Source: an uncultured Gammaproteobacteria bacterium | GTDB lineage: Bacteria > Pseudomonadota > Gammaproteobacteria > Steroidobacterales > Rariloculaceae | Length of the DNA: 64,000 bases | Reading direction: 5' to 3' | Assembly (NCBI GenBank): GCA_964457725.1 | Contig: CAYWGQ010000002.1 | Coordinates: 45,023-109,022 of the forward strand | Shown here: one piece after another, positions 7,411 through 47,690 of the stretch | How positions within the stretch are numbered: position 1 is the stretch's first letter | Layout of the letters: each line of letters starts with the position of its first letter | Made by a program: the position numbers and the translations under genes | The notes under the pieces: model-generated | Database searches by the model: none | What the model saw: only the letters and a program-made list of their open reading frames with translations | What the model was told of the DNA's origin: nothing

Positions 7411-7443
7411 CTGGCCGCCGCGGCGGCCAAACGGGGGAAAATC

Positions 7444-8844: not shown

Positions 8845-8893
8845 CGCCGGGCTCGCCGCGGCGAGAGACCCGCCGCGCGCGGGCTCTGGTCGC

Positions 8894-9280
8894 TCACAAC
8901 GACGGGGTCGGCGTACGGTTCCGCTCCGCCCGCTCCTGACACTCGACGCAGAGCGTCGCGTGCGGCACGGCTCGCAGGCGTGCGGCCGGGATCGGCTGCC
9001 CGCAGCTCGCGCACGTCCCGTACGTTCCGCTCTTCAGCCGGCGGAGCGCGTGCTGCACCGCCCGCAGCTCGTCGAGATCGCGGTCGATCTCCGCGAGGTG
9101 CAGGTCCACCAGCAGATCCGCGGTCGCGACGTCTTGCGGATCGGGGGTTCCCTGGATCAAGTCCTCGTACTGCGAGGCGTCGTGCTTGCGAAGCTCGCGG
9201 CGAACGTCTTCCCAGAGCTCGTCGTAACGGAGCCGAAGCGTCCGCTCGATCTCGCTCGTGTCGAGCGTGTTCTCGGTCAC
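8894..9280 (-). CDS. DksA/TraR-family C4 zinc-finger protein
   Basis: A GTG at 9280 follows GGAGGACCC. The 128 aa product has a C-terminal CASCGQPIPAARLRAVPHATLCVECQ (CxxC-N17-CxxC). Confidence 0.8.
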   Translation of the reverse strand: MTENTLDTSEIERTLRLRYDELWEDVRRELRKHDASQYEDLIQGTPDPQDVATADLLVDLHLAEIDRDLDELRAVQHALRRLKSGTYGTCASCGQPIPAARLRAVPHATLCVECQERAERNRTPTPSL

Positions 9281-9987
9281 GGGTCCTCCGTGCGGTTCGG
9301 CGGGGGTGATCGGGCGAGCGCGGGCTCGCTCGGCTCGAGCAGACTCTCGTCGAACAGGCGCTCCGAGACCGCAGCGACGACCGAGTCGGCGAGCCGCTCG
9401 AACGCGGTGTCGTCCATCGTCTCCGAGCGGGCCGTCCAGACGAGCTCGTCGGTCTCGTTGTCGTACAGCGACGTTTCGACGACGACGTAGGTGTACTGCT
9501 CCCAGTAGCCCGCGGAGCGCACGACGTCGCGCGTCATGCGCCAATGCCAGTAATAGTTCCAGTGCGGGTAGTAGTACCAGAAGTACGGATGGCCGACGAT
9601 GACGCCGGGCGGCAGCGTGCCGAGATACGGCGACGCTCGTCTGAACACGCGGCGCTCGTCGACGGCGATCAGGCGGAAGATCAGCAGGGCGTCGATCTCG
9701 GCGTCGAGCAGCGCGGCTTCCATCTCCTCGTAGGTGTAGTCGCGGCTCGGCTCGAGAAACTGCCGCCCCTCGACCACGCGGACGCCGCGGCCTTCGAAAT
9801 GCTCGGCGGCCTGCCGCTCGAATGCACGGCTTTCGGCTTCCGTATCGAACAGCGCGACGACGCCGATCCGGCTGAACGGCATGCCGGAGAACGACGGGTC
9901 GGTCCATGCGGTTTCGATCGTCGTCGGCGCGACGGCGCAGCCGGCGAGGGCCGCGAGCGATGCGAGCACCAACGTCGGTCTGCACAT
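9277..9987 (-). CDS. lipoprotein (DUF4136-like)
   Basis: Lipobox LAALAGC at residues 11-17. The protein is aromatic-rich (FWYYYPHWNYYWHW). Its stop overlaps the dksA-like start by 4 nt. Confidence 0.65.
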   Translation of the reverse strand: MCRPTLVLASLAALAGCAVAPTTIETAWTDPSFSGMPFSRIGVVALFDTEAESRAFERQAAEHFEGRGVRVVEGRQFLEPSRDYTYEEMEAALLDAEIDALLIFRLIAVDERRVFRRASPYLGTLPPGVIVGHPYFWYYYPHWNYYWHWRMTRDVVRSAGYWEQYTYVVVETSLYDNETDELVWTARSETMDDTAFERLADSVVAAVSERLFDESLLEPSEPALARSPPPNRTEDP

Positions 9988-10059
9988 GGCACCGAAGGTG
10001 CAATGTCCGTGCCACGGCAGCGTGCCGCGACGCCGTCGGCCGCTCGTTAGGAAAGGCGC

Positions 10060-11619
10060 TTACTCGCTCGGCATTCGTGCAGGGGGATCGGCTGCCGCGT
10101 GGATACGCGCCGAAGCGGCGGAAAGCTCGCCTTCGACGCCGCGCCGCGTACGCATGCCGCGCCAGGCGAAGATCGCGCCGAGCGCGGCGAGCGTCGGCAG
10201 CAGCGGGTGCGCGACCGCGAGCGCGAGCGGATCGTCGAACAGGATCACGGTGTGGCGGAGCGAGCGCTCGAACATCGGCCCGAGGATGAAGCCGATTAGG
10301 AACACGATGAACGGGAACTCGAGCTTGCGCATGAAGTAGCCGAGGACGCCGAAGACGAGCGTGACGCCGACGCCGAACATCGAGCCCGCCGACACGTACG
10401 CGCCCGTCACGCAGAGGAGCGCTGTAGATGCGACGATCGCGTGCCGCGGGATCGCGAGAAACAGCGCGAAGAACCGCAAGCCGACGTTGCCGACGACGAG
10501 ATTCGCGAAGTTCGCGAGCATCAGCGACGCGAACAAACCGTAGACCACTTCCGGGTTTTCTTCGAACACGAACGGCCCGGGCGTGATTCCGTGGATCAGG
10601 AATGCGCCGACCAGGAGCGCGGCCGTCGCACTGCCGGGAATCCCGAGGGTGAGGAGCGGTATCAGGCTCGCGCCGATGACGGCGTTGTTCGCCGACTCGA
10701 CCGCCGCGACGCCCTCGAGCTTGCCCGTGCCGAACGCCTCCGGCGTCTTCGACGCGCGCCGCTCCGCGCCGTACGCGAGGAATGCGGCGACCGAGGCGCC
10801 GAGCCCCGGCAGCGCGCCGACCGCGGTCCCGATCACTGAGCCGCGCAGGATCGCCCGCGCGCAGCCCTTGAGCTCCGCGAGGCTCAGCCGATCCTTCGCG
10901 CCGCCGGAGAGGCCGAGCGGACGCGCCGTCTGCGGCGGCGGCCCGCGGAAGTACTCCTCGAGCTGCACGAGCACCTCGCCGAGCGCGAGCACGCCGATCG
11001 CGATCGCGACGAGCGGCAGCCCGTCCTGCAGCTCGAGCAATCCGAACGTGAGGCGCTCGCCGCCGGTCTCGAGATCGAGCCCGATCGTCGCGAGCAGCAT
11101 GCCGAACGCGAGCGCGAAAACGCCCTTCAGCACCGACCGGCCGAGCAGGCTCGCGATGAACGCGAACGAAAAGACCAGCACGCCGAGGATCTCCGGCGGC
11201 CCCATTCGCAGCGCGAGGACCGTCAGCGGCGCCGCGGAAACGATCAGCACGAGGTCAGCGAACACATCGCCCGCGACGGACGAGTAAAGCGACACCGACA
11301 GCGCCTTCCGCGGCTCGCCGCGCTTTGCGATCGGATGACCGTCGAGCGCCGTCAGCGCAGAGGACACTTCGCCGGGGGTGTTGATCAGGATCGAGGTGAT
11401 CGCGCCGCCGTACTCGCCGCCCTTGTGCACGCCGATCAAGAAGGCGATCGCCGACAGCGGGCTCATCGTATAGGTGAGGGGCACCCCGATCGCGATCGCC
11501 ATCGGCGCGCTCATGCCCGGAATCGCGCCGACCAGGATCCCGAGCGATACGCCGAGCACGATGAGGGCGACGTTGGTCGGTTCGAGCGCGGCGCCGATGC
11601 CGGCGAGGATCACTTCCAT
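10060..11619 (-). CDS. tctA: tripartite tricarboxylate transporter, large permease
   Basis: 519 aa polytopic membrane protein. The GAIPGMSAPMAIAIGVPLTY and GGEYGGAITSILINTPGE blocks are typical of TctA. Confidence 0.9.
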   Translation of the reverse strand: MEVILAGIGAALEPTNVALIVLGVSLGILVGAIPGMSAPMAIAIGVPLTYTMSPLSAIAFLIGVHKGGEYGGAITSILINTPGEVSSALTALDGHPIAKRGEPRKALSVSLYSSVAGDVFADLVLIVSAAPLTVLALRMGPPEILGVLVFSFAFIASLLGRSVLKGVFALAFGMLLATIGLDLETGGERLTFGLLELQDGLPLVAIAIGVLALGEVLVQLEEYFRGPPPQTARPLGLSGGAKDRLSLAELKGCARAILRGSVIGTAVGALPGLGASVAAFLAYGAERRASKTPEAFGTGKLEGVAAVESANNAVIGASLIPLLTLGIPGSATAALLVGAFLIHGITPGPFVFEENPEVVYGLFASLMLANFANLVVGNVGLRFFALFLAIPRHAIVASTALLCVTGAYVSAGSMFGVGVTLVFGVLGYFMRKLEFPFIVFLIGFILGPMFERSLRHTVILFDDPLALAVAHPLLPTLAALGAIFAWRGMRTRRGVEGELSAASARIHAAADPPARMPSE

Positions 11620-11634
11620 CGGACGGCGCCGTCG

Positions 11635-12078
11635 TTACGGCAGCGGGAAGCCGAGCACGCCGTCGAACAACAGCCACAGCGCGAGCGGGAACAGCACGGC
11701 CATGCCCGCCGTCGCCTTCCAGCTCGCACCGCCGATCGCGGTGAAGCCGCCGACGAGGACGGCGGCGCCGGCGAGATAGCCGAGGAGCTGCATCAGGACG
11801 AGCGCTCCGGCGAGCACCGCGCAGGCGGCGCCCACGAACAGCCAGCTCGGCCGGTCGAGCGGCGCCGGCTCGTCCGTCTCGGGAGCGCGGACCAGCCGCG
11901 CGACGAGGAGCAGCAGGGCGGCGGCGGTTGCGAGCACCGCGGCGACGTACGGCATGAACGCGGGGGGCAGGTCGCCGAACCCGACGTCCTGCGTCACCTG
12001 GCGCGGGATGATCACGAAGATCGTCAGAAGGCCCAGCAGGCCGAGCACGCCCGCGCTGATCAGGTCCGTCCGCCGCAT
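11635..12078 (-). CDS. tctB: tripartite tricarboxylate transporter, small membrane subunit
   Basis: 147 aa with four hydrophobic segments, positioned between tctC and tctA. Confidence 0.7.
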   Translation of the reverse strand: MRRTDLISAGVLGLLGLLTIFVIIPRQVTQDVGFGDLPPAFMPYVAAVLATAAALLLLVARLVRAPETDEPAPLDRPSWLFVGAACAVLAGALVLMQLLGYLAGAAVLVGGFTAIGGASWKATAGMAVLFPLALWLLFDGVLGFPLP

Positions 12079-12094
12079 CGCGTCCGCGGTCCGC

Positions 12095-13063
12095 CTATTC
12101 GCCGATTCGGGCGACGGCGCGGGCGAGCGTGTCGGCCTCGCTGCGCAGCGCCGCGGTCACGTCGTCCGGACCGAGGTAGTGCTCGGGATACTTCAAATTG
12201 TCGAGCAACGTGCGCATCGCGGGCGACCGGATCGCCTGCTCGAGCGCGGCCGACAACGGCTGCTTGATCTCCTCCGGCAACCCGGGCGGCGCGGAGACGA
12301 CGAACACGGAGCACGACGAGATGTCGTAGCCGAGCTCCCGCAGCGTCGGCACCTCGGGGGACGTCGCGAGCCGCGTGTCCTCGGCCGAGGCGAGCACGCG
12401 CATCTGCCCGGCGGCCACGTGGTCGACGTGCGGTCCGCCGGAGAAGCCGAAGTCGGCATGGCCGCCCAAAATCGCTTGCATCATCTCGCCGCCGCCCTGC
12501 ACCGTGATCACTCGGAACTGGACGCCGGCGACCTTCGCGATGAAGTCGGCGACGATCCTCGTCAACGGCGACTGCGATGCGAACACCGGCCGTTCGCCGC
12601 GGCGCGCGGCGGCGATCACGTCGTCGAGCGTCTCGTACGGCTTCCTCGTGCTCGTCACGAGCGCGCACTGGCCCTTCGAGACCGACGCGAGGTGCGTGAA
12701 GTCGTCGAGCGAGTAGCGCGTGACCGCGGGCATGATCACCGGATTGCCGGAGTACGCTTGCGATATCGCCATGCCGAGCGTGTAGCCGTCCGGCTTGCTG
12801 CGCGCGAGGAACGTCGCCATCACGCCGCCGCCGGCGCCCGTCCGGTTGTGCACGACGACGGGTTGCCCGAGGACCTCCTCGAGCGCCTTGGCGAGCACGC
12901 GGCCGAGCACGTCGGTGCTGCCGGCCGGCGTCGAGCCGATGTGCAAGTCGATCGCCTTCGTCGGATACTCGGCGCCCGCGGGCAGCGATGCGACCGCCAG
13001 CACGCCGGCGGCGAACGCGGCCGCGACCCGGCGGATTCCGCTCGTTCTCGGTCCTCGGATCAT
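12095..13063 (-). CDS. tctC: Bug/TctC-family periplasmic substrate-binding protein
   Basis: 322 aa with a signal peptide. Contains VVVHNRTGAGGGV, KPDGYTL and VQGGGEMMQAILGGHADFG, typical of the Bug family. Confidence 0.85.
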   Translation of the reverse strand: MIRGPRTSGIRRVAAAFAAGVLAVASLPAGAEYPTKAIDLHIGSTPAGSTDVLGRVLAKALEEVLGQPVVVHNRTGAGGGVMATFLARSKPDGYTLGMAISQAYSGNPVIMPAVTRYSLDDFTHLASVSKGQCALVTSTRKPYETLDDVIAAARRGERPVFASQSPLTRIVADFIAKVAGVQFRVITVQGGGEMMQAILGGHADFGFSGGPHVDHVAAGQMRVLASAEDTRLATSPEVPTLRELGYDISSCSVFVVSAPPGLPEEIKQPLSAALEQAIRSPAMRTLLDNLKYPEHYLGPDDVTAALRSEADTLARAVARIGE

Positions 13064-13082
13064 CGGGTCGACCGTTCCCGCC

Positions 13083-14030
13083 TCACGCAGCCGGCCGCGC
13101 CGGCCCGAGCATCTCGCCCGCGAGCGCGCGCGACGGCACGCCGTCGACGCCGACCGGCACGTCGCCGACCAGCGTCACGCGATAGAGCTGCCGATCGAAA
13201 TCGGTCTCGAACACGTCCTCGGGCGCGAGATGCGCGGTTGCGCGGTTGTCCCACATCGCGATGTCTCCCGCGTTCCAGCGGAAGCGGCAGACGAAGTCCG
13301 GCCGCACGACGTGCTCCCACAGGAGCTCGAGAAGCTGCTGGCTCTCGCGAGCGGTCAGCCCGACGATGGAGCGCAGGAACGCAGGGCTCACGTACAACGC
13401 GCGCTCGCCGGTCTCGGGATGCACGCGCACGAGCGGATGCTCGCTCGAGAAGCTCGTGCGGTTCGTCTGCGCGAGCGCGTTCCCGGTGACCTTGCCGTAG
13501 CCGTGAATGCCGCGCAGCCCGTCGACGAACCGGCGCATCGTCGGCGAGAGGGCATCGTAGGCCGCGACGAGGTTCGTGAACTGCGTGTCGCCTCCGTAAG
13601 GCGGGACGGTGACCGCACGGAGGATCGATACGGCGGGCGGATTGACGATCGTCGTCAGATCGGTATGCCAGCCGGTCCACGGCCGGATCGGGTCCGGCTC
13701 GGCGTGACTATGGCGCTCGCGTCGCTTCGCGACGGAGTACACCTCCGGGAAGCCTTCCTCGTGGCCGTAGAGGACGTGGCCGATCGTCGGCTCGCCGAGC
13801 GCGCGTGCGAAGGCGACGTGCTGCGCGTGGTCGAGGTGCTGATCGCGGAAGAACACGACTTTCCATTTGAGGAGTGCCGCGCGCACCGCGGCCACGGTCT
13901 CCCGCGACGGCGGTTGCTTGAGATCGACGCCGAAGATCTCGGCGCCGGTGAAAACCGTCATCGGCCGGACCTCGATCGTGCCCGGTGTCGTCCGCTCGTC
14001 GAGCGGCGATGCTGAAGCCATGACTCGCAT
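13083..14030 (-). CDS. TauD/TfdA-family Fe(II)/2-oxoglutarate dioxygenase
   Basis: 315 aa. Contains GAEIFGVDL, VVFFRDQHL, the WHTDLT (HxD) facial-triad motif and MWDNRATAH. Confidence 0.85.
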   Translation of the reverse strand: MRVMASASPLDERTTPGTIEVRPMTVFTGAEIFGVDLKQPPSRETVAAVRAALLKWKVVFFRDQHLDHAQHVAFARALGEPTIGHVLYGHEEGFPEVYSVAKRRERHSHAEPDPIRPWTGWHTDLTTIVNPPAVSILRAVTVPPYGGDTQFTNLVAAYDALSPTMRRFVDGLRGIHGYGKVTGNALAQTNRTSFSSEHPLVRVHPETGERALYVSPAFLRSIVGLTARESQQLLELLWEHVVRPDFVCRFRWNAGDIAMWDNRATAHLAPEDVFETDFDRQLYRVTLVGDVPVGVDGVPSRALAGEMLGPARPAA

Positions 14031-14184
14031 CCCCCTGCGGCCGAGCGCGCTTCGGCTTTACAAGCCTTTCGGCGCTCTGCTATTAGCTCCGAAGAGTGAG
14101 GCGAAAGCGACCGCCGGGTCAAGCACGGCGATGCTCGGAAGGCGGAGCGGGGCTCCGCGGGGGAACCAAGGAACTCGTTCGTAT

Positions 14185-15036
14185 ATGTCCATGTCGCGGC
14201 AGCAAGAATCCGTGGTCATCCGACCCCTGAATCCCGTCATCGGTGCGGAGCTGCACGGCTTCGACCTCAGAGAGGAGCTCACCGACGAGGACGTCGAGAC
14301 GATTCGCGCCGCGCTGAACCGCTACGGAGTCGTCTTTTTCCGCGATCAGGACATCACGCCCGAGCAGCAGCTTCGCTTCGGTCGGCGGTTCGGCGAGCTG
14401 CACGTGCATCCTTCCGTCCGCGGCAAGCCGCGTGAGGAGTGGACCGAGCTTCTCGCCGTGCACGCGGACGAGCGCACGGTGCGCGTCGTCGGCGACAAGT
14501 GGCACACCGACGTGTCCTGCGACGAGAAGCCGCCGTACGCGAGCATCCTGCACCTGCACACCGTCCCGGAAACCGGCGGCGACACGCTCTTCTCGAGCAT
14601 GTACGCGGCGTACGAGGCGCTGTCCGAGCCAATGAAGCGCTTCCTCGAACCGCTGACCGCGACGCACGACGGGGCACCGAACTACGCGGACCGCGCGCGG
14701 CGCGATCCCGAGTCGGGCAGACATCGGGTCGATCCGGTGGCGGTGCACCCCGTGATCGCGACGCACCCGTTCACGCGCCGAAAGACCATCTATGTGAACT
14801 CGATCTTCACGGTGCGGATCAACGAGCTCGAGCCGGCGGAGAGCGACGCGCTGCTCGCGTTCCTGTTCGCGCACGTCGCGCGTCCGGAATTCCAGTGCCG
14901 GTTCCGCTGGCGGCGAAACTCGATCGCCTTCTGGGACAACCGGGCCGTGCAGCATTACGCCGTCTGGGACTACTACCCGGCTGTCCGCTCCGGGCACCGC
15001 GTGACGATTCGCGGCGACCGTCCGGCCAGGGCGTGA
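14185..15036 (+). CDS. TauD/TfdA-family Fe(II)/2-oxoglutarate dioxygenase
   Basis: ATG at 14185 gives a 283 aa product. Contains GAELHGFDL, VVFFRDQDI, WHTDVSCDEKPP, GGDTLF and FWDNRAVQH. It is divergent from its paralog at 13083..14030. Confidence 0.85.
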   Translation: MSMSRQQESVVIRPLNPVIGAELHGFDLREELTDEDVETIRAALNRYGVVFFRDQDITPEQQLRFGRRFGELHVHPSVRGKPREEWTELLAVHADERTVRVVGDKWHTDVSCDEKPPYASILHLHTVPETGGDTLFSSMYAAYEALSEPMKRFLEPLTATHDGAPNYADRARRDPESGRHRVDPVAVHPVIATHPFTRRKTIYVNSIFTVRINELEPAESDALLAFLFAHVARPEFQCRFRWRRNSIAFWDNRAVQHYAVWDYYPAVRSGHRVTIRGDRPARA

Positions 15037-16337
15037 CCGACTGCGAAGTCGTCGTCATCGGCGCGGGCGCCGCGGGCCTGGCGGCAGCGGCCGAGCTCGA
15101 TCGTCGCGGCCGCAGCGTCTGCGTGCTCGAGGCGCGCTCGCGCATCGGCGGACGGATACTGACCGAACGCGCGCCTGGATTCCCGGCACCGCTCGAGCTC
15201 GGCGCGGAGTTCGTTCACGGCCGCCCGGCCGCGACCGTCGGCCGGCTCGAAGCGCATGGCGGCGCGATCGTCGACGCGGGCGGCGAGCACTGGATGCTGC
15301 ACCGCGGCCGGCTGCAGCGCGCGGAAGGCGTGTTCGCCGAGTTGAAGCGCGCGCTGCGCCGCGCGCGGGTGCCGCGCGGCGACTTGCCGTTCGCCGAGTT
15401 CCTCCGAGCGCACGGGCGCGGACTTTCCCGAGAAGCGCGGCAGCTCGCACGCCTGCTCGTCGAGGGGTTCGACGCGGCCGACGCGACGCGTGCGAGCACG
15501 CAAGCGATATTGCGCGAGTGGCGCGGGCAGGGGGCGGCCGATGCGCCGACGTATCGCCCGCTCGGCGGCTACGCCGTGCTGCTCGATGCGCTCCGCGCGG
15601 CGCTCGGCGGCGCGCGCGTCGAGCTCGAGTCGGTCGTCGAGGCGGTGCGCTGGTCGCGAGGCCGCGTCGTCGTCACGGCTACGCGCCGCGGGGAGGCGTT
15701 CGAGATCGTCGCGTCCGCTGCGGTGATCGCGTTGCCGCTCGGCGTGCTCCAGGCGGGCGTCGTGCGGTTCGATCCGGAGCTCGCGGCGAAGCGCAGCGCG
15801 CTCGAAGGCCTCGCCGCCGGTCCGGTCATCAAGGTGCTGCTGCGCTTCGGCAGCGCCTTCTGGGAGACGATCGATCGCGGCCGCTACCGGAATGCCGCGT
15901 TCTTTCAGTCCGCCGCGGCGCCGATCCCGACGTTCTGGACGGCGTTGCCGCTACGCGTGCCGCTCCTGACCGGATGGGCCGCGGGGCCGAAGGCGGCCGC
16001 GCTCGCCGGCGCGGGCGAGCGCGCGATCGTCCGCGCGGCCGTTGCGAGCCTCGAAGCGCTATTCGGCGTGCGGCGGCGTTGGGGCGCGCGGCTCGTAGCC
16101 GCGTACGTGCACGACTGGCAAGAGGACGAGCTCGCGCGCGGCGGCTACAGCTACGTCGTGAGCGGCCGCGCGGACGACGCGCGGGCCGCGCTCGCGGCGC
16201 CGCTCGAGCGGACGCTCTACTTCGCCGGCGAGGCGGCCGACACGGCCGGGGAGTCCGGAACGGTCGCCGGCGCGCTGCAGAGCGGGCTCCGCGCGGGCGG
16301 CGAGGCGGCCCGGGCCCTCGCTCGACGAGCGCGCTAG
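15033..16337 (+). CDS. flavin-containing amine oxidase family protein
   Basis: A GTG at 15033 overlaps the preceding stop (GTGA). Contains VVVIGAGAAGLAAAAEL...VLEARSRIGGR (FAD fold) and a C-terminal YFAGEA..GTVAGALQSG. Confidence 0.8.
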   Translation: MTDCEVVVIGAGAAGLAAAAELDRRGRSVCVLEARSRIGGRILTERAPGFPAPLELGAEFVHGRPAATVGRLEAHGGAIVDAGGEHWMLHRGRLQRAEGVFAELKRALRRARVPRGDLPFAEFLRAHGRGLSREARQLARLLVEGFDAADATRASTQAILREWRGQGAADAPTYRPLGGYAVLLDALRAALGGARVELESVVEAVRWSRGRVVVTATRRGEAFEIVASAAVIALPLGVLQAGVVRFDPELAAKRSALEGLAAGPVIKVLLRFGSAFWETIDRGRYRNAAFFQSAAAPIPTFWTALPLRVPLLTGWAAGPKAAALAGAGERAIVRAAVASLEALFGVRRRWGARLVAAYVHDWQEDELARGGYSYVVSGRADDARAALAAPLERTLYFAGEAADTAGESGTVAGALQSGLRAGGEAARALARRAR

Positions 16338-16350
16338 AATTGGCGACGAC

Positions 16351-17382
16351 GTGCTGCCGAATCGATCGATGCGCTTCCTTTTGCCGTTGACGCTGCTCTT
16401 GGGTGTTGCGCCGCTCGCGTCCGCGCATCATTCCCGCGCGGAGTACACCGAGGGCGCGCGCGAGATCGAGGGCACGCTCGTGCGGATCCTGTGGCGCAAT
16501 CCGCACCCGGGCTTCACGATCGAGACGGTCGAGGCCGGTCGGACGGTGACGTGGGAAGTCGAGGGATGGAGCTCGCTCTACACGTTCGATCGTGCCGGCA
16601 TCACGCGCGAGCGCTTTCGGGAGGGCGACACGGTGCGGGTCGTCGGCCTGCCGTCCGGGCGTCGTCCCGGCCGCCTGCTCGGCACGCACATCCTGCTCGC
16701 CGACGGCACCGAGGCCGTGATGAAGCGTGACGCCGAGCCGTACTGGGCGGACGGGCGGCACATCGGCGGCAGGCGAAACTGGGAGGCGGAGACGCGCGCG
16801 GCGGTCGTCGACGCGGCGGCCGAGAACCGGGGGATCTTCCGAGTCTGGAGCTACCCGTCGCCGGTCTACGAGACGCGCGAGCACGTGCGGCTGACCGCGG
16901 CGGCCGAGGCGGCGCGCGCGGCCTTCGACGAGGTCGACAATCCGATCATGGCCTGCGAACAGAAGAGCATGCCGGGCAGCATGCTGACCCCGAATCCGTA
17001 CGAGTTCGTCGACGGCGGCTCGACCATCACGATCCGCGGCTACGAGGGCGACGTGGTGCGGACGGTGTATCTAGAACAACCTTTAAATATTGATCAGATA
17101 CCATTGACCAAGCAGGGATTATCGGTCGGTCGTTGGGAGGATGCGCGGACGCTCGTGATCCACACGTCGCGAATCGACGCGCCGCACCTCGGCTTCAGCG
17201 GCGTCCCGCTCTCGGCGGCCGCGACGGTCGTCGAGCGCTATCGGCTGAGCGAGGATCAGACGCGGCTCGATTTCACGATCGTCGTGACCGATCCGGCGAC
17301 GTTCATCGAGCCCGCGACCTTCGAGTTCCATTGGCTCGCGCTCGGGGAGCGCTTCGGCCGCTACGACTGCACCGTCCACTGA
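16351..17382 (+). CDS. fusion protein: N-terminal AHHS (DUF6152-like) domain plus C-terminal partner-family domain
   Basis: Signal peptide ...PLASA then HHS, with NPH 25 aa later, as in 28884, 39840 and 47804. The C-terminal 220 aa aligns with 40248, 46557 and 48307 (GLSVGRWEDARTLVIHT, VVERY, VTDPATFIEPATF, terminal YDC). An alternative start is ATG 16369. Confidence 0.75.
   Translation: MLPNRSMRFLLPLTLLLGVAPLASAHHSRAEYTEGAREIEGTLVRILWRNPHPGFTIETVEAGRTVTWEVEGWSSLYTFDRAGITRERFREGDTVRVVGLPSGRRPGRLLGTHILLADGTEAVMKRDAEPYWADGRHIGGRRNWEAETRAAVVDAAAENRGIFRVWSYPSPVYETREHVRLTAAAEAARAAFDEVDNPIMACEQKSMPGSMLTPNPYEFVDGGSTITIRGYEGDVVRTVYLEQPLNIDQIPLTKQGLSVGRWEDARTLVIHTSRIDAPHLGFSGVPLSAAATVVERYRLSEDQTRLDFTIVVTDPATFIEPATFEFHWLALGERFGRYDCTVH
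17068..17124 (+). other. in-frame AT-rich patch (19 codons, 35% GC) inside CDS 16351..17382
   Basis: Counted by hand: 20 G/C of 57 nt, and only 6 of 19 codons end in G/C. The codons include TTA x2, ATA, CTA, AAT, ATT, CAA and GAA. Flanking codons almost all end in G/C. Confidence 0.9.
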
Positions 17383-17424
17383 GCGCGGCTCTTCCGCGGA
17401 CGCGCTCGCCGTGGCGGGTAACGC

Positions 17425-18036
17425 TCAGCGTCCGTCGTCGTCGCCGTCGTCGTCCTTGCCGGTGAACACGAGCTCGGGCGACAGCATCTCGCCCGGCGGG
17501 GCATCGGCTTCCGCGGCATCCGCGGCGGCGGGCTCGGTGCCCTCGGGGGCCCGTCCGTCCCGCGACCACGGCGTCTCGCCGAGCAGTGCGTTGATGGTGC
17601 CGTCGTGCGTGGCTGCCGGCAGCACGCGACGCTCCGCGTGTGCGGGAGGCGCCGACCGTGCGCGCGGCTCGCGCAAGAACTCGCGATCGATGCTCGTCCG
17701 CTCGAGCTCGCGGTTCGCCGCCGCGAGCCTCGCCATCACCTCGTTGTGCTTGTCCGCAAGCTTCTCGAGCTCGGCCTCGCGCTCGGCGAGCTTCCGTGCC
17801 GCGCTCTCGGCGCGCTCGCGCGCGTCCGCGAGCTGCTTCGCGTAGCTCTTCTCCAAGACCTCGAGCTTGAACTCGAGCTGCTCGACGTTCGTTCGAAACG
17901 CGGCCGACCGCTGCCGCTCCTCCGTGAGCGCGCGCTCGAGCCGCGCGATCGCGGCGTCGCGCTCGTCCGGAGCGGCTGCGGGCTCGCCGGTCGGGGCAGG
18001 GGCGGCCGCCGCCGCCGAGGTGCGGTCGTTGCTCAT
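17425..18036 (-). CDS. coiled-coil protein with acidic C-terminus
   Basis: ATG at 18036 gives a 203 aa product. A heptad-like stretch (RLERALTEERQRSAAFRTNVEQLEFKLEVLEKSYAKQLADARERAESAARKLAEREAELEKLADKHNEVMARLAAANRELE) is followed by an acidic tail KDDDGDDDGR. Confidence 0.55.
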   Translation of the reverse strand: MSNDRTSAAAAAPAPTGEPAAAPDERDAAIARLERALTEERQRSAAFRTNVEQLEFKLEVLEKSYAKQLADARERAESAARKLAEREAELEKLADKHNEVMARLAAANRELERTSIDREFLREPRARSAPPAHAERRVLPAATHDGTINALLGETPWSRDGRAPEGTEPAAADAAEADAPPGEMLSPELVFTGKDDDGDDDGR

Positions 18037-18125
18037 CGCAAGGCGGTGATAGTCGAACCGTACGCGAGGGTACCGGGAAGCCGAGCGGCGCGCCCTGACG
18101 CCGATCACACCGGCCCCGGCGCGGC

Positions 18126-19658
18126 TCACCGCCGCAGCAACCGCCCGACCAACCGGCCCGCGCCGAGCAATTGCCGCAGCGGCCGCCGCCAGGGCCGCTT
18201 CTCGGCCGTGCCCCGCAGCACCCGCACCCAGCGTGCACGCTGCGCCTCGTCGATCGATGCCTCGATCCGCCGCCACAGAAGGTCGAGGTTCTCGGGCGGC
18301 GTGCGGTCGAGGCGCATCGGGACGATCGCGTCGTGCTCGACGCCGAGCTCAGCGGCAAGCGCGTCGATCGCCGCGGCGACGGGCTCGTCCGCCGGTCGCG
18401 GCGAATCGGCAGAAGAGGGCGCCGTCCAGTCGGCCGCTCCGGCGAGGCGATCGACATGGGTGGCCGCGACGATGACGGGCGGCGCGCGCCGCTGCGGGTT
18501 CGCGGCGAACCGGGCGCGCAGCGCCTCGAGCGCAGCGCGATCGAGCACGGGGGCCTCCTGTATCGCGGTGACCCAGATCACGAGATCGCAGGCGAACGCG
18601 CGTTTCACGAACTCGACCGTGCTCTGCTCGTCGTCGATGCCGGGCGAGTCGATCAGATAGGCGGGCGGCAGATCCGCGTCGCGAAGCTCGTAGCCTTGGA
18701 AGGCGGCCGTGAACGGCTTGACCTCGACGTCGCCGCCGATCGCGCCGAGCATCGCCCGGACGAGCGTCGACTTGCCGGCGTGCGTGCGGCCCGCGACCAG
18801 CATCCGCAACGATCCGGGCGGTGCGACCGCGGTGGCCGCGCCCTTCAGCCCCTCGGACGCGGCCTCGCGCTCGAGCGCTTCCGCGTCGACCCGCAGGCGC
18901 CCGGAGTAGAGCTCGATCGCTGCACGGCCGACCTCCTCGATCCACAGCCGCACGATGCGCCGCCGCACATTGCTCTGCACCGTGTCGAGCAAGTCGCCGA
19001 GCAGATGGTCGCGCACCTCGGCCGCGACCGCGTGCAGCGGGCTCACCGCACGCGCGATGCGGACGACGGAGTAGAGTCTGCGGCCGTGCTCGACGCCGGC
19101 CGCGATCAACGGCCGGTAACCCCAGGCGCGAATCAGCGATCGCGCCCGGAGGCGGTGCGACAGCGGCACGTGCTCGAGCAGCGTCAGCCGCAAGCGTGCG
19201 CTGACCCGCTCGGTGAGCAGCAACAGCTCCGGCAGCGTGAACTCGAGCGCCGGCTCGGCGTGCTCCGGATGGTAGTGCCGCGCGACCTCCTTCAGCGTCC
19301 GCTCGGCCGCGGCCACCATGCGGCGGTGGTCGTCGAGCATGTCGGGATCCGCCTCGTCCGAGAGCCGCCGTACCGCGCGCCAGGCCGCCTGCTCCTGCGG
19401 CGCCCACGTCGGATCGGGGGCCGTGATCGCGTGGTCGTCCGGTGCGGCAGGTGTGCGCTTCGGCCGATGCCGGAGCCGCAACGAGCCCCATGCGAGTAGC
19501 GTGAGCGTCGCCGCGCCGAACAGATACGGGAACAGCCAGCCGCGCTCGGTGAGCCAGGCGAGCCCGGCGACGAACAGCAGGACCAGCGGCATGAGCAGCA
19601 CGGCGACTGCCGTGATCTCGAACCACCACTTGGGCAGGATGCGACGGCGACTCCGCAT
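18126..19658 (-). CDS. membrane-anchored P-loop GTPase-domain protein
   Basis: ATG at 19658 (MRSRRRILPKWWFE). Two N-terminal hydrophobic segments. G1 is GRTHAGKST, G3 is DSPG, and ATHVD is G4-like. The track ORF extension to 20216 overlaps the YkgJ gene and is rejected. Confidence 0.65.
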   Translation of the reverse strand: MRSRRRILPKWWFEITAVAVLLMPLVLLFVAGLAWLTERGWLFPYLFGAATLTLLAWGSLRLRHRPKRTPAAPDDHAITAPDPTWAPQEQAAWRAVRRLSDEADPDMLDDHRRMVAAAERTLKEVARHYHPEHAEPALEFTLPELLLLTERVSARLRLTLLEHVPLSHRLRARSLIRAWGYRPLIAAGVEHGRRLYSVVRIARAVSPLHAVAAEVRDHLLGDLLDTVQSNVRRRIVRLWIEEVGRAAIELYSGRLRVDAEALEREAASEGLKGAATAVAPPGSLRMLVAGRTHAGKSTLVRAMLGAIGGDVEVKPFTAAFQGYELRDADLPPAYLIDSPGIDDEQSTVEFVKRAFACDLVIWVTAIQEAPVLDRAALEALRARFAANPQRRAPPVIVAATHVDRLAGAADWTAPSSADSPRPADEPVAAAIDALAAELGVEHDAIVPMRLDRTPPENLDLLWRRIEASIDEAQRARWVRVLRGTAEKRPWRRPLRQLLGAGRLVGRLLRR

Positions 19659-19855
19659 GACGGTGCAGTGTCGCAGATCGACGCGCGTCGGGGGTTCTTG
19701 CAGAGCCGAAAACAACCGTTGTCGGGAGGAGGGGAGGTGCGATTGCGGTTGGCGCTCGCCGCCACGCTCGGGATCTCGTCCGCGGCGCAGCGCGGACACG
19801 CTCGCTCGCCCCCGACGAGCACGAGCGGCCGTCCCGCCGCTCTTGCCGAGAAAGG

Positions 19856-20328: not shown

Positions 20329-20352
20329 TTTAACCGTTAGGAAACGGTTAAA
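20329..20352. promoter_or_regulatory. perfect 10-bp inverted repeat TTTAACCGTT-AGGA-AACGGTTAAA in a divergent intergenic region
   Basis: Read directly from the sequence. It is an AT-rich palindrome between the YkgJ start (20227, minus strand) and the cytochrome c'-like start (20411, plus strand). Confidence 0.5.
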
Positions 20353-40247: not shown

Positions 40248-41096
40248 GTGCGTGCGCTCCTTCTCGCCGCGTCGCTAGCGCTCGCGGCCGCGCCTGCAAC
40301 CGGGCAATTGAGCCTCGTCGGGGAGTGGGCGGGCCGCTACCACGAGGATCAGGCGGACCGCATCCCGGGCGACGTCCAGGGCGATTTCACCGGGGTGCCG
40401 CTGAACGACGCGGCGCGGCGCTACGCCGAGGCGTTCGACGTGACCCGCGTCGCCGTGCTCGAGCACCAGTGCCAGCCGTACAACGTCGCGCACATCTACC
40501 GGGGGCCGCTGCAGTTCCGGATCTGGGAAGAGAAGGATCCGGCGACGCAGGAGATCGTCGCCTACCGCCAGTATCTCGGCACTTACCAGCAGTGGCGCAC
40601 GATCTGGATGGACGGCCGCCCGCATCCGCCGGACTACGTCCCGCACACGTTCATGGGCTTCTCCACCGGCCGCTGGGACGGCGACATCCTCACCGTGCAC
40701 ACCACGCACATCAAGAAGGAGTTCTACCGGCGCAGCGGCATCCCGAGCAGCGACCAGACGACGATGGTCGAGCACTACATTCGCCACGGCGACCTGCTGT
40801 CGCACGTGATGATCATCACGGACCCGGTATATCTGACGGAGCCGTACGTGAACAGCCAGGAGTTCGTGCTGATGGAGCGCGGCAACCAGAACTGGCTCTA
40901 CAACTGCGAGTACGTGATGGAAGTGCCGATGCCGAAGCACGACGTGCCGCACTACCTGCCCGGTCAGAATCCGTTCATCGAGGATTTCGCGCAGAAGTTC
41001 GGGCTGCCGTTCGAGGCGGTGTTCGGCGGTGCGGAGACGCTCTATCCGGAGTATCAGCCGCGGCTCGAGGCGCTGATGAACGGCGGCGGACGATGA
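40248..41096 (+). CDS. secreted hypothetical protein, partner family
   Basis: A GTG start lies 9 nt after the 39840 gene stop. The 282 aa product has a signal peptide and contains VPLNDAARRYAEAFD, DGRPHPP, GFSTGRWDGDILTVHTT, MVEHY, ITDPVYLTEPY and the Cys pair HQC/YNC. Confidence 0.75.
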   Translation: MRALLLAASLALAAAPATGQLSLVGEWAGRYHEDQADRIPGDVQGDFTGVPLNDAARRYAEAFDVTRVAVLEHQCQPYNVAHIYRGPLQFRIWEEKDPATQEIVAYRQYLGTYQQWRTIWMDGRPHPPDYVPHTFMGFSTGRWDGDILTVHTTHIKKEFYRRSGIPSSDQTTMVEHYIRHGDLLSHVMIITDPVYLTEPYVNSQEFVLMERGNQNWLYNCEYVMEVPMPKHDVPHYLPGQNPFIEDFAQKFGLPFEAVFGGAETLYPEYQPRLEALMNGGGR

Positions 41097-42016
41097 CGCG
41101 CGCGACTCGGGTATCCGCCGCGGTCGCCGCGCTGCTCGCCGCGGTCGCGCTCGATGCGAACGCGCAGCGCGGCGGGATCGACACCTACCACGTGCAAGGC
41201 AACGTCTACATGCTGATCGGGGCGGACGCGAACGTCGCCGTCCAGATCGGCGAGGAAGGCATCCTCGTCGTCGACACGGGCGGCGCGGCGACGCGCGACG
41301 CCGTTCTCGCAGCGATCCGCACCCTGTCGGACAAGCCGATTCGCTGGATCGTGAACACCCACGCGGACGTCGACCACACCGGCGGCAACGAGACCATTTC
41401 CCAGGCGGGCATGACCGTCAACGGCAACCCTGCCGCGATCATCGCGCACGAGCGCGTGCTCACGCGGATGTCCGAGGAAGACCGGCCGATCACCGAGTGG
41501 CCGCTAAACACGTTCTTCGAGTCGCAGCGCGACTTCAGCTTCAACGGCGAGGCGATCTTCCTGTATCACGTGCCGGACGCGCACACGGACGGCGACGTGA
41601 TCGTGTACTTCCGCGGCTCCGACGTGCTCGTCGCGGGCGATCTCTTCGTCACGACCACGTATCCGGTGATCGATCGCGACTCGGGCGGCGGCGTGCAGGG
41701 TTTCATCGACGGGCTGAACCTGATGCTCGACATCGCGGTGCCGCGCTATCTCCAGGAAGGCGGGACGTACGTGATCCCCGGGCACGGGAGGCTCGGCGAC
41801 GAGGCGGACATCGTCGAGTATCGGGACATGGTCGTGATCATCCGCGATCGCGTCCGGGACATGATCGATCGCGGGATGACGCTCGAGCAGGTGCTCGCGG
41901 CGCGTCCGTCGCTCGACTACGACACGCGCTACGGCAGCGGTCGCGGCGAGTGGACGACGCGGATGTTCGTCGAGGCCGTGTACCGCGATCTGGCGGCGAA
42001 AGGAGGCAGTGAGTGA
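41093..42016 (+). CDS. MBL-fold metallo-hydrolase (secreted)
   Basis: ATG at 41093 overlaps the preceding stop. Has a signal peptide. Contains NTHADVDHTGGN at the HxHxDH position, HTDGDVIVYF and IPGHG. It is a paralog of 21025..21951. Confidence 0.8.
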   Translation: MTRATRVSAAVAALLAAVALDANAQRGGIDTYHVQGNVYMLIGADANVAVQIGEEGILVVDTGGAATRDAVLAAIRTLSDKPIRWIVNTHADVDHTGGNETISQAGMTVNGNPAAIIAHERVLTRMSEEDRPITEWPLNTFFESQRDFSFNGEAIFLYHVPDAHTDGDVIVYFRGSDVLVAGDLFVTTTYPVIDRDSGGGVQGFIDGLNLMLDIAVPRYLQEGGTYVIPGHGRLGDEADIVEYRDMVVIIRDRVRDMIDRGMTLEQVLAARPSLDYDTRYGSGRGEWTTRMFVEAVYRDLAAKGGSE

Positions 42017-42870
42017 GCGTCCGGAAGATCGCGGCCAGCGGCCGCCTCGCGGCCGGGATCGGCGCGGCGGTGCTCGCCTCGGCCGCGTTCGCGCAGAACG
42101 AGAGTGCGCAAGAGGCCGCGCGGATCGACCTGACGGGCTACTGGGTTTCCGTCGTCAGCGAGGACTGGCGCCACCGGATGGCGACGCCGCGCCGCGGCGA
42201 TTACGAGAGCGTGCCGCTGAACGACGAAGGCCGTCGCGTCGCCGATCAATGGGATCTCGAGCGCGACAACGCGGCGGGCCTCGAGTGCAAGGCGTTCGGC
42301 GTCGGCGGCTTGATGCGGCAGCCCGGCCGGTTGCGCATCGAGTGGGACGACCCGAATACGCTCCGGATCGATTTCGACGCCGGCACGCAGACGCGGCTGC
42401 TGCACTTCGATCCCGGCGTCGCGCCGCCCGCGGAGAAGACGTGGCAAGGGCATTCCGTCGCCGAATGGGTCGGGCCCCCGCGGCCGCGCGGCCAAGCGCC
42501 GGTCCGCGCGCAGATCGGCAACAGCGCCGGGCCGATCGCGCCGGGCGGCGGCGGGCGAGGGCAGCGCGGCGGGCCGCCGCCGCCGGCCTCGGTCAACGAG
42601 GGCGGCGCGCTGAAGGTCGTTACGACCGGCTTCCGCGAAGGCTACCTGCGGAAGAACGGCGTGCCGTACAGCGAATCCGCCGTGATCACGGAGTATTTCC
42701 ATCGGCTGCCGCAGCATCCGAACGGCGACACGTGGCTGCACGTCGTCACGATCGTCGAGGACCCGCTATACCTGAACGAGCCCTTTTACACGAGCACGCA
42801 TTTCAAGCTCGAGCCGAGCGGCGCACGGTGGAATCCGACTCCGTGCCGTACCGCGCCGCCGCCGCCGTAA
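42013..42870 (+). CDS. secreted hypothetical protein, divergent partner-family member with Gly/Pro-rich insert
   Basis: A GTG at 42013 (RBS AGGAGG) overlaps the MBL stop. Contains LTGYWVSVVSEDW, VPLNDEGRRVADQWD, LKVVTTGF, ITEYF and VEDPLYLNEPFY. It carries an insert, PGGGGRGQRGGPPPP. Confidence 0.7.
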   Translation: MSVRKIAASGRLAAGIGAAVLASAAFAQNESAQEAARIDLTGYWVSVVSEDWRHRMATPRRGDYESVPLNDEGRRVADQWDLERDNAAGLECKAFGVGGLMRQPGRLRIEWDDPNTLRIDFDAGTQTRLLHFDPGVAPPAEKTWQGHSVAEWVGPPRPRGQAPVRAQIGNSAGPIAPGGGGRGQRGGPPPPASVNEGGALKVVTTGFREGYLRKNGVPYSESAVITEYFHRLPQHPNGDTWLHVVTIVEDPLYLNEPFYTSTHFKLEPSGARWNPTPCRTAPPPP

Positions 42871-46556: not shown

Positions 46557-47690
46557 ATGGCGAAAGCTGCACTACCGGCAGGCGCGCTCGCGGCCGCCGC
46601 TCTGATGGTTTGCTCCACGGCGGGCTTCGCGCAGGCGCCGCGGGCCGACGGCGCGGCCGAGCCGCCGCAATCGCGCCGCGTCCCCGCGGAGACCCTCGCA
46701 GCGAAGGTCCGCGACCCTTCCTGGCGTGCCCCGCGAACCTCGTGGGGGCATCCGAGCTTCGAGGGCGTCTGGAGCACGGACGACATGCGGAGCGTGCCGC
46801 TGAATCGACCGGAGGAGCTCGGCGACAACGCGAGCCTGACGCCCGAGCAGTTCGCCGAGCGCGCGCGGCGCGACGAAGGCGCGCTCGATCGGGCCGTGAA
46901 CACCGAGACGTTTCTCAGGAACGAGTGGGGCGTGCGCACGTTCGGCTACAGCTCGCTCGTGATCGATCCGCCGAACGGCCGCATCCCGCCGATGACCGAG
47001 GCCGGCCGGGCGCGAGCGGCGAACCGCGACCGCGGGACGTTCGGCCCGGGTCCGTTCGACACGTTCGAGGATTTCACGCTCTACGACCGCTGCATCACGC
47101 GCGGGGTCATCGGCTCGAAGCTGCCGGTGATCTACGGCAACGGCCTGCGAATCGTGCAGACGCCGGACTCCGTCGCGATCAGCTACGAGATGATCCACGA
47201 CACACGGATCATCCCCGTCGACGGGCGGCCGCACATGAGCGGCGACATTCGGCAGTACCTCGGGAACCCGCGCGGTCGCTGGGAGGGCGATACGCTCGTC
47301 GTCGAGACCGTGAATTTTACCGATCAGACGAGCATCGGCCCGAACGGCAACGGCACCCGGCACAGTGCGCAGATGAAGCTGACCGAGCGCTTCACGCGCA
47401 TCGATCCGGAGATGATCGAATACGTCGCGACCGTCGACGACCCCGTCGCCTACACGGCGCCTTTCACGTTGCGGCTCATGCTCACGACGCAGCCCGGCTA
47501 TCAGCTCTACGAGTACTCCTGCCACGAGGGCAACGGCGCGGTGAAGAATTCGCTCTCCGGCGAGCGAGCGTGGGAGCGCGAGGCGGCCGAAGCGGCCGCG
47601 AAGGGCCTGCCGCCGCCGCAAAGGGCCGGGAGCGTCTATGGCCCGCCCGAGGAGGGCGCCGAGGTGTTCAACATCAACCGGGGCGAGTGA
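46557..47690 (+). CDS. secreted hypothetical protein, partner family
   Basis: ATG at 46557 follows GAGGAG. The 377 aa product has a signal peptide. Contains FEGVWS, DRCITRG, DGRPHM, GRWEGDTLVVETVNF, LTERF, VDDPVAYTAPF and YSCHEGN. Confidence 0.75.
   Translation: MAKAALPAGALAAAALMVCSTAGFAQAPRADGAAEPPQSRRVPAETLAAKVRDPSWRAPRTSWGHPSFEGVWSTDDMRSVPLNRPEELGDNASLTPEQFAERARRDEGALDRAVNTETFLRNEWGVRTFGYSSLVIDPPNGRIPPMTEAGRARAANRDRGTFGPGPFDTFEDFTLYDRCITRGVIGSKLPVIYGNGLRIVQTPDSVAISYEMIHDTRIIPVDGRPHMSGDIRQYLGNPRGRWEGDTLVVETVNFTDQTSIGPNGNGTRHSAQMKLTERFTRIDPEMIEYVATVDDPVAYTAPFTLRLMLTTQPGYQLYEYSCHEGNGAVKNSLSGERAWEREAAEAAAKGLPPPQRAGSVYGPPEEGAEVFNINRGE

Follow-up and report, generated by a model that had tools for sequence, protein, structure and literature searches.

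An AT-rich, rare-codon patch in the putative surface loop of a GC-rich DUF6152 gene, possibly a relic of short-patch import

Micro-recombination can import tracts of no more than tens of base pairs in naturally transformable pneumococcus and Helicobacter, and the mosaic genes of Streptococcus pneumoniae and Helicobacter pylori offer a natural point of comparison for the feature described here, which is a 57-nt AT-rich patch with foreign codon usage at positions 17068–17124 of a 64,000-nucleotide stretch of contig CAYWGQ010000002.1 (this whole stretch is called the window in what follows), lying inside a gene for a secreted protein of the DUF6152 family. What the patch has in common with those mosaic genes is a short tract of foreign composition, an in-frame replacement of a homologous segment, and sharp boundaries that lie in conserved flanks.

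Other described systems bear on it as well. Translational control through TTA codons (of the bldA type) and clusters of rare codons occur in GC-rich Streptomyces, and the proteins H-NS, MvaT and Lsr2 are xenogeneic silencers that bind AT-rich DNA. The patch is like the former in that it gathers codons of the rarest kind (TTA twice, ATA and CTA) within 19 codons, but its cluster is not conserved in GC-rich orthologs, and its host appears to be proteobacterial, the relatives being metagenome-assembled genomes (MAGs) of Gammaproteobacteria. By its composition it would be a candidate target of xenogeneic silencers, being a lone AT-rich stretch, with about 36 nt at 28% GC and with TpA steps, set in surroundings of 70% GC; however, its length falls well below that of the usual silenced island, and it is intragenic. 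The process called SPDIR is described as the replacement of 3 to ~100 bp by ectopic DNA that is annealed at microhomologies and may come from any source (bioRxiv 10.1101/2023.11.22.568220); its wild-type frequency is put at ~1e-13 to 1e-12 and natural examples are called scarce. The size class fits (the core of the patch is 36 nt, the whole anomaly 57–75 nt), and the clustered, highly variable polymorphisms are alike too, but SPDIR donors are usually unrelated sequences, whereas the patch encodes a homologous loop with family residues. Mosaic micro-replacement is a type of event that is already known, to which the patch would add one more instance, unusually clean as regards contrast in composition.

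The patch, its limits and its occurrence in independent assemblies

The gene and the subdivisions of the anomaly are as follows (all positions are those of the window).

16369..17382, plus strand: host gene, encoding a secreted DUF6152 protein of 337 aa; start codon ATG 16369, the mechanical open reading frame (ORF) running from GTG 16351
17068..17124, plus strand: AT-rich rare-codon patch, 19 codons encoding YLEQPLNIDQIPLTKQGLS, residues 240–258 (343-aa numbering)
17068..17103, plus strand: core of the anomaly, 12 codons, 28% GC, 1 G/C-ending codon, ~29 of the 37.8 bits scored by the best segment, binomial P = 2e-9
17104..17142, plus strand: shoulder, with scattered atypical codons TTG, GGA, TTA, GGT, CGT and GAT over the conserved residues L-T-K-Q-G-L-S-V-G-R-W-E-D

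The patch is the most extreme compositional outlier of the 64-kb window and its sole strongly AT-rich spot. It had been picked out in an earlier reading made from the sequence alone (the sequence-only reading), and the letters quoted there, together with the counts of 20 G+C in 57 nt (35%) and 6 G/C-ending codons in 19, were confirmed when they were read again; it keeps the reading frame of the ORF 16351/16369..17382. When all 57-nt stretches of the window are compared, the minimum falls at 17066–17122 (19/57, or 0.33), the runner-up elsewhere being 28/57 (0.49). With a mean GC for the window of 0.698 and a standard deviation (sd) of 0.063, this places the patch ~5.8 sd below the mean, and the GC minima of the window for stretches of 30, 40, 80 and 100 nt also fall at the position of the patch.

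The codons are as unusual as the composition. The fraction of codons ending in G or C (GC3) is 0.32 in the patch as against 0.87 for the gene (binomial P = 4e-8), and when synonymous choices are judged by a reference usage derived from those ORFs of the window that are themselves high in GC3, the patch is the least probable of ~15,800 19-codon stretches, with a log10 probability of -19.1. Scoring of segments for uniform versus native synonymous usage yields a maximum-scoring segment at 17068–17142 with 37.8 bits, the second-best segment of the gene reaching 6.3 bits, so that the foreign codon usage claimed in the sequence-only reading is well founded. There are only 6 TTA codons among the ~16,600 codons of the window and 2 of them are in the patch, where further rare codons (CTA, ATA, CCA, CCT and GGA) also occur.

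The left boundary of the anomaly is sharp and comes directly after ACG GTG. The right boundary is uncertain (17124–17142), because the atypical codons of the shoulder are scattered and because GTC GGT CGT TGG GAG GAT recurs verbatim in L007, a homolog of 61% GC; this part of the shoulder may, to judge by the shared codons, be native. Taken without the core the shoulder scores ~8.9 bits, which is near the background maximum of 6.3 bits for the gene and is dominated by one TTA.

Given how short the patch is, how sharp its edges are and how rich it is in restriction sites (XbaI, DraI, SspI and BclI), one might think of a chimeric assembly, of contamination or of a linker introduced by engineering, and the first two had been raised in the sequence-only reading. 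The contigs found to carry the patch are:

Logan contigs (n = 7): SRR29457794/5, SRR18680875, SRR26389758, DRR731770, SRR17041388/9
ENA contig (n = 1): ERZ27256727

Both the exact 57-mer and the exact 337-aa protein thus recur in 8 contigs that were assembled independently of one another and represent at least 6 accession series; these contigs agree with the window at 99.95–100% identity across 1.9–11.4 kb and show, within the gene, one difference only, a single-nucleotide polymorphism at 16716 in one contig. At the protein level the C-terminal 150 residues, patch included, are found as an identical fragment in a protein collection, where the cluster of this fragment holds the full 337-aa protein, and fragments with the patch are present also in a ninth data set, SRR5690606. 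Since the same exact patch was assembled independently eight times, from different runs and by different pipelines, chimera and contamination are excluded for practical purposes; an artefact would also have had to be in frame, to preserve the length of the loop and to keep residues conserved in the family. The patch is a genuine genomic feature of the organism, and the case illustrates how a chimera suspected on grounds of composition can be checked against independent public assemblies.

A search of 17050–17140 against a plasmid collection with blastn returned no match. The notion of an engineered 57-bp in-frame linker scar or polylinker was rejected: the patch has neither a transposon mosaic end nor a NotI site, it carries family residues, and it is found in wild metagenomes.

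As to the organism itself, it is present at 99.95–100% identity in eight runs (L053–L060, window positions 7253–19710) belonging to at least 6 unrelated accession series, and its sequence diversity across runs is strikingly low for an environmental bacterium. Among them is SRR17041389, a run to which a thermophilic compost study (PMC9009411) refers, while SRR5690606 is a soil protein catalogue that contains fragments of the organism's protein.

A variable loop in the host protein and its relatives

All public gene calls start at ATG 16369 (MRFLLPL...), which gives a more typical signal peptide than does GTG 16351; the signal peptide is of Sec type and ends between ...PLASA and HHSRAEY. The N-terminal domain is DUF6152 (Pfam PF19649, E = 6.8e-12), a family of which no mention was found in the literature searched. 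An AlphaFold2 model built from 42 homologs (pLDDT 87.5, pTM 0.82) was compared with known structures using Foldseek, which matched the N-terminal part to OB folds, in particular the anticodon-binding domain of lysyl-tRNA synthetases (LysRS), and gave CRABP-II, whose barrel is calycin/lipocalin-like, as the match for the C-terminal part, here a barrel of 8 strands. In the model, residues 240–258 join strand 235–240 to strand 257–264, such that the patch starts on the last residue of the one and finishes in the first residues of the other, the 16 residues between the strands forming a loop that has a one-turn helix at 247–249. The patch is therefore predicted by the model to encode a surface loop, namely the long connection of beta-strands 3 and 4 in the C-terminal barrel. 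Invariant across the DUF6152 family are an HHS at the N-terminus, following the signal peptide, and two cysteines, C202 and C340.

Relatives of the protein are numerous. In the protein collection the family comprises ~200 clusters, the top match being 79% identical, while genomes yielded relatives of up to 66% identity in MAGs of Gammaproteobacteria, for instance Ca. Rariloculaceae. Every family member has a loop at the position of the patch, usually of 18–19 residues (range 17 to ~40) and usually following the pattern [HY]-[ML]-x-D-x-x-[DN]-P-x-x-x-P-x-[ST]-x-Q-G-[FYW]-S, but its sequence is highly variable across the family and the constraint on it at the protein level is weak. In some members, among them P0033, P0035, P0036, P0041 and P0059, it has grown to 26–40 residues by tandem PADPAAQ-like repeats (the expanded loop of P0059 reads HLVGATDPAAQPADATAQPADPAAQPADTETQPYTDQGY), and as such expansions are found in several lineages the loop is a hotspot for change in length as well as in sequence.

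Three paralogs of the barrel are encoded in the window itself.

40248..41096, plus strand: paralog consisting of the lipocalin-like domain only; equivalent loop ...DGRPHPPDYVPHTFMGFS
46557..47690, plus strand: paralog with the same C-terminal domain; loop ...DGRPHMSGDIRQYLGNP
42013..42870, plus strand: third paralog, more divergent, with the same domain

These share the barrel domain alone with the host protein, at 26–31% identity, and the span from RT[IV] to GRW is indeed 26 residues in the host protein as against 27 in the paralogs at 40248 and 46557, as the sequence-only reading had it. That reading had further proposed that a segment was replaced here, not inserted, and comparison with orthologs agrees. 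The patch peptide YLEQPLNIDQIPLTKQGLS is of standard length for the family, begins with the usual Y/L and ends with P-L-T-K-Q-G-L-S, so that the conserved P-L-T-[KR]-Q-G-x-S is retained (the closest ortholog, P0001, reads VPLTRQGYS). Standard length and conserved end residues together indicate, from the sequence, that the patch replaces a homologous loop segment and is neither an insertion nor random filler. Genes of the DUF6152/barrel type are in general multi-copy, and in related genomes several DUF6152 genes are clustered, often near genes for PQQ-dependent dehydrogenases (examples are L005, 4010–5155 and 19650–20066, and L066, 1173–2276). The host gene has two TauD-family genes and an amine-oxidase gene upstream of it; the next gene is convergent.

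At the DNA level, loop GC follows gene GC to within ~0.1 across 25-odd homologous loci. For six GC-rich orthologs the DNA is available (P0001, P0002, P0003, P0004, P0012 and P0013), and in these the loop has a GC of 0.57–0.75 and a GC3 of 0.53–0.90, or 0.72–0.90 if P0003 (0.53) is set apart; none comes near the 0.32 of the patch. No GC-rich relative with readable DNA was thus found to carry the same AT-rich codons, whose presence there would, according to the sequence-only reading, have pointed to conserved function, and its suggestion of a rare-codon pause was not upheld as a feature conserved in the family, the loop codons being normal in five of the six orthologs and moderately shifted in P0003. 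The comparison with P0001, the closest ortholog having DNA, shows how one-sided the change is: within the patch there are 23 GC-to-AT differences and 1 AT-to-GC difference, while in the remainder of the gene these number 50 and 63 (Fisher P = 1.7e-6), and nucleotide identity is 46% within the patch and 79% outside it. The change is directional, from GC to AT, and the patch is absent from the GC-rich orthologs. The shift extends to synonymous positions of conserved residues (CCG to CCA, CTG to TTG, GGC to GGA), and atypical codons on conserved residues point to a homologous template as opposed to random filler.

In P0003, 9 of 17 loop codons end in G or C (0.53) as against a gene GC3 of 0.81 (P = 0.008), and this loop may show the phenomenon a second time, in weaker form. 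Its gene (L065) has the loop codons TCA TTG GCT GCT GAA and an HMDDSL motif like that of the loops of lower-GC clades, and it comes from an ENA assembly that is numbered close to the one holding the window's strain.

Possible origins of the patch

The explanation that we favour, and to which a probability of roughly 45% may be attached, is that the patch is what remains of a short-patch import, by which the corresponding loop of a lower-GC homolog entered a loop that is both permissive and hypervariable. The loop coding sequence would have been overwritten with much lower-GC DNA by short-patch recombination, the tract being ~36–75 nt long with its sharp left edge at 17068 and its fuzzy right edge at 17124–17142. 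Such a tract might have delivered just the loop of a lower-GC family member, or else later recombination in the conserved flanks might have trimmed a tract to the loop, and it would have survived because there is hardly a sequence or length that the loop does not accept. The effects that it has now (a lone AT-rich spot and the very rare codons TTA, twice, CTA and ATA) would then probably be incidental and not an evolved function. It is the mechanism of import and the nature of the donor that we infer here, as distinct from the anomaly, its position in the loop, the replacement and its directionality, which were treated as results above. Were this explanation true, the patch would be a case of natural mosaicism on a micro scale, in which a few dozen bases rewrote a surface loop to give what is the sole allele in the sampled assemblies, by way of a tract whose small size and divergence put it far outside the reach of classical homologous recombination; it would also mean that the hypervariable loop of a lipocalin-like barrel can take foreign sequence. 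Natural evidence for short-patch events is scarce, and the contrast of 33% with 70% GC makes this tract easy to delimit.

Among ~150 family members the best match to the loop was that of P0095, which belongs to a distant clade of lower GC and lies on a contig of 54.5% GC, with 10 of 19 residues (YLDSSLNPQDQPLTLQGFS), while the loops of the nearest GC-rich orthologs match the patch at 3–6 of 19. The lowest-GC members (L014, L016 and L050) have genes of ~48% GC with a loop GC of 0.40–0.47 and a loop GC3 of 0.37; in L016, with a gene GC of 0.476, the loop values of 0.40 and 0.37 are close to the 0.35 and 0.32 of the patch. A proxy based on amino-acid composition suggests that there is nothing much lower in GC within the family. 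When a 42-aa query was run against 50% representatives, the family contributed only P0122 and P0074, next to low-complexity noise, in a library that reduces the family to a few representatives and in which individual loops cannot be ranked. The proposal of the sequence-only reading that a short patch had been imported from a low-GC homolog therefore stands as regards homologous replacement and foreign codons, but not as regards a donor, none having come to light in searches of DNA or of proteins.

Several observations weigh against import. The loop DNA of P0095, although the best DNA match in the family, agrees with the patch at only 31 of 57 positions, and known family members reach no lower than ~47–48% GC. 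A degenerate back-translation of LNIDQIPLTKQG had 0 matches in genome and metagenome contigs (collections in which the genome of the window's organism was itself not found), the pattern EQPLNIDQ found no relative in a metagenome scan, and no closer loop turned up in the protein collections with full-length, 144-aa-region or P0095 queries (~200 clusters). Phylogenetic incongruence is a weak signal, as far as the sequences allow it to be read: the 10 of 19 residues shared with P0095 are ordinary for proteins 60% identical overall, and the 3–6 of 19 shared with the nearest clade are at the low end of the family's loop-versus-flank scatter, yet inside it. Nor was a patch-free allele seen in the 8 assemblies or a variant at 90% protein identity or above, the 90% cluster having no variant members. 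Here, too, the parallel with the pneumococcal and Helicobacter mosaics breaks down, in that there is no identified donor lineage and no allele without the patch in the sampled assemblies, and in that the implied divergence of donor and recipient, at ~40% of nucleotides, is far above the tolerance of classical homologous recombination; two crossovers that are in frame and preserve length, at ~60% identity, are mechanistically rare.

Timing raises a further difficulty of the same kind, which arises from a sister lineage known only as a protein. P0122 is a 144-aa protein-only fragment from the same soil data set (SRR5690606) as the fragments of the window's protein, and is its reciprocal nearest relative, with flanks 84% identical (at most 82% for all others). 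Its loop, YLDETLEVEEKPLSKQGIS, is identical to the patch at 9 of 19 positions with conservative changes at most others, and like the patch it is poor in G, A, R and P. This related loop suggests that the loop type may be older than the split between the two lineages. Silent sites are not saturated, since 66% of 4-fold degenerate sites agree between the window gene and P0001, where saturation would leave 44%, and when amelioration is roughly estimated the relaxation factor on the lineage of the window comes to ~0.67. An import before the split from a donor with a GC3 of 0.37 would then, by amelioration at 4-fold sites, be expected to show a GC3 of ~0.54 today, under which the probability of 6 or fewer G/C-ending codons out of 19 is 0.04 and that of 1 or fewer out of 12, as in the core, is 0.001. 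The mismatch speaks for selection, for an event of recent date or for a donor far richer in AT; had the donor been extremely AT-rich, even an old import could still show a GC3 of ~0.3. This is the chief tension for the import explanation, and it keeps the rival of selection for AT alive.

On that rival, the principal one, the patch would be an AT-rich or rare-codon island that selection on the DNA or the RNA preserves, within a family-derived loop inherited vertically in the clade of the window and P0122, and we consider it rather unlikely; the claim that such an island is shared in kind with P0122, acts at the DNA or RNA level and is not a passive relic seems unlikely to a similar degree. Possible roles include a nucleation site for an H-NS/MvaT-like protein, AU-rich access for RNase E or small RNAs, and a translational gate dependent on very rare tRNAs (for TTA, twice, ATA and CTA), and were selection at work the interest would lie in a compact cis-element or codon gate concealed in a gene. 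In its favour are the shared loop type of P0122 and its paucity of G, A, R and P, the GC3 of the core (~0.1), which is hard to square with an import older than the split, short of a donor with extremely high AT, the identity of the patch across all 8 assemblies, the presence there of 2 of the window's 6 TTA codons, a mild enrichment of palindromic hexamers (P ~0.02) and the moderate AT shift of the loop of P0003 (GC3 0.53 versus 0.81, P = 0.008). However, with normal loop codons in 5 of the 6 GC-rich orthologs an AT-rich loop is not a family-wide property, and neither a sigma-70-like promoter on either strand, nor an Rfam match, nor a significant hairpin was found (see the last section). Judging from its peptide, P0122 cannot encode TTTAAA, AATATT or TGATCA, three of the four palindromes of the patch, so a sequence-specific site would not be conserved; with a Sec-type signal peptide on the protein a pause for co-translational folding has no obvious role, and with the downstream gene convergent an internal promoter is unnecessary. 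An accident of mutation in situ, in which either error-prone repair or deamination produced GC-to-AT changes in a burst or a relaxation of constraint exposed the universal mutation bias towards AT, would account for the strong directionality (23 to 1) in a loop that is weakly constrained as protein, and the loop of P0003 is likewise somewhat AT-shifted. It is nevertheless very improbable, since it would have had to alter ~40% of positions in 57 nt while leaving adjoining codons untouched and the left edge sharp; moreover the changes combine transitions with transversions, and therefore bear no deaminase signature, synonymous sites in the loops of other GC-rich orthologs have stayed GC-rich, so that relaxed constraint alone is insufficient, and no other AT-shifted loop was found by the GC scan of the 64-kb window.

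Also to be weighed is an event of the SPDIR type, in which ~32–36 nt of unrelated, phage-like AT-rich DNA would have replaced the 5' part of the loop by way of microhomologies (CT on the left side and CC on the right), while PLTKQGLS, encoded by the 3' part, would be native and would owe its TTA to a single F(TTC)-to-L(TTA) change. A search with blastn of 17050–17140 against 2.3 Gb of phage genomes returned one match:

17071..17102, plus strand: stretch matching the uncultured 636-kb megaphage LR756504.1 at 29 of 32 nt (E = 5e-3, 46 bits)

The match is in the same reading frame (LKQHLNIDQIP in the phage, LEQPLNIDQIP in the window) and lies inside an unrelated phage ORF. There are several things to be said for it: it falls where the codon anomaly has its core, all 3 mismatches are A in the phage and G or C in the window, which is the direction expected from amelioration, three codon-shuffled controls gave nothing, nothing and a best E of 0.2 at 39 bits, and the shoulder by itself, at ~8.9 bits owed mostly to one TTA, is near the background of 6.3. 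Against this, it is a lone borderline match, whose nominal E-value is optimistic because query and database are both AT-rich (our own estimate of the composition-corrected expectation is roughly 0.01–1), and the microhomologies at its junctions with LR756504.1 amount to just CT and CC. An exact 21-mer scan of IMG/VR found that phage lineage only. The megaphage group of which LR756504.1 is a member is treated in a marine study (PMC9723777) and is known from other environments, no ecological link having been found to compost or soil, where the bacterium occurs. The 5' half of the loop fits the family features (Y1, L2, acidic 3, L6 and N7, as in P0095) and resembles P0122 position by position (a BLOSUM sum of ~+11 over 9 positions by our own calculation), and the exact loop length would have to be coincidence. 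For these reasons, and given the optimistic E-value, the phage match is probably due to chance, and replacement by phage-like DNA we regard as quite improbable.

The megaphage ORF in question (L061, LR756504.1 573875–575106; also L062 and L063) codes for ...ELAEQMAQYILKQHLNIDQIPSALSVGEDP... and, after it, for a long tail of acidic, low-complexity sequence; in addition to LNIDQIP it has LSVG and ED in the order of the window protein, though gapped, which is probably a coincidence.

Smaller elements in the patch and elsewhere in the window

Two further features can be read within the patch.

17070..17096, strand not assigned: four palindromic hexamers, TCTAGA at 17070, TTTAAA at 17082, AATATT at 17086 and TGATCA at 17091
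17082..17088, plus strand: slippery heptamer T_TTA_AAT (X_XXY_YYZ, zero frame), read from the sequence

The hexamers are where the sequence-only reading had placed them, and TCTAGA, TTTAAA and AATATT are each unique to the patch within the 64 kb; as 4 were observed and ~1.0–1.2 would be expected at the composition of the patch (P = 0.02–0.03 in a post hoc test), the enrichment is weak. The suggestion from the same source of an embedded or antisense promoter found no backing, there being 0 sigma-70-like promoters on either strand in 16300–17500 (other sigma factors were outside the scan). No terminator was predicted in the patch, and the whole window contains no Rfam family and no tRNA gene.

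An imperfect hairpin at 17067–17101 (GUAUCUAGAACAA...UUGAUCAGAUAC) was considered as a structured element but gained no support, its stability being no better than that of shuffled sequences (z = -1.66 as RNA, with 13 of 200 shuffles equally stable, and z = -1.60 when folded as DNA) and there being no Rfam match. Programmed -1 frameshifting at the heptamer was rejected as a function because the -1 frame (TTT AAA TAT TGA) stops at once, with TGA at 17091–17093 two codons on; no significant stimulatory structure follows at the usual spacing, and the heptamer is probably a by-product of AT-richness. A variable region of a diversity-generating retroelement was rejected in view of the lack of a template repeat in the window (a reverse transcriptase was not searched for): no second copy of the patch with 3 or fewer mismatches is present there, and blastn-short of 17038–17154 against the window gave only chance matches of 9–14 nt. 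Flanking direct repeats or a target-site duplication were likewise not found around the patch.

Finally, away from the host gene, there is at 20329–20352 a perfect 10-bp inverted repeat, TTTAACCGTT-AGGA-AACGGTTAAA, which is among the next-lowest-GC spots of the window and holds 2 of its 5 TTAA sites. It is in a divergent intergenic region, between the start of a minus-strand gene at 20216 and that of a plus-strand gene near 20412, and from its sequence it looks like the operator of a dimeric regulator.

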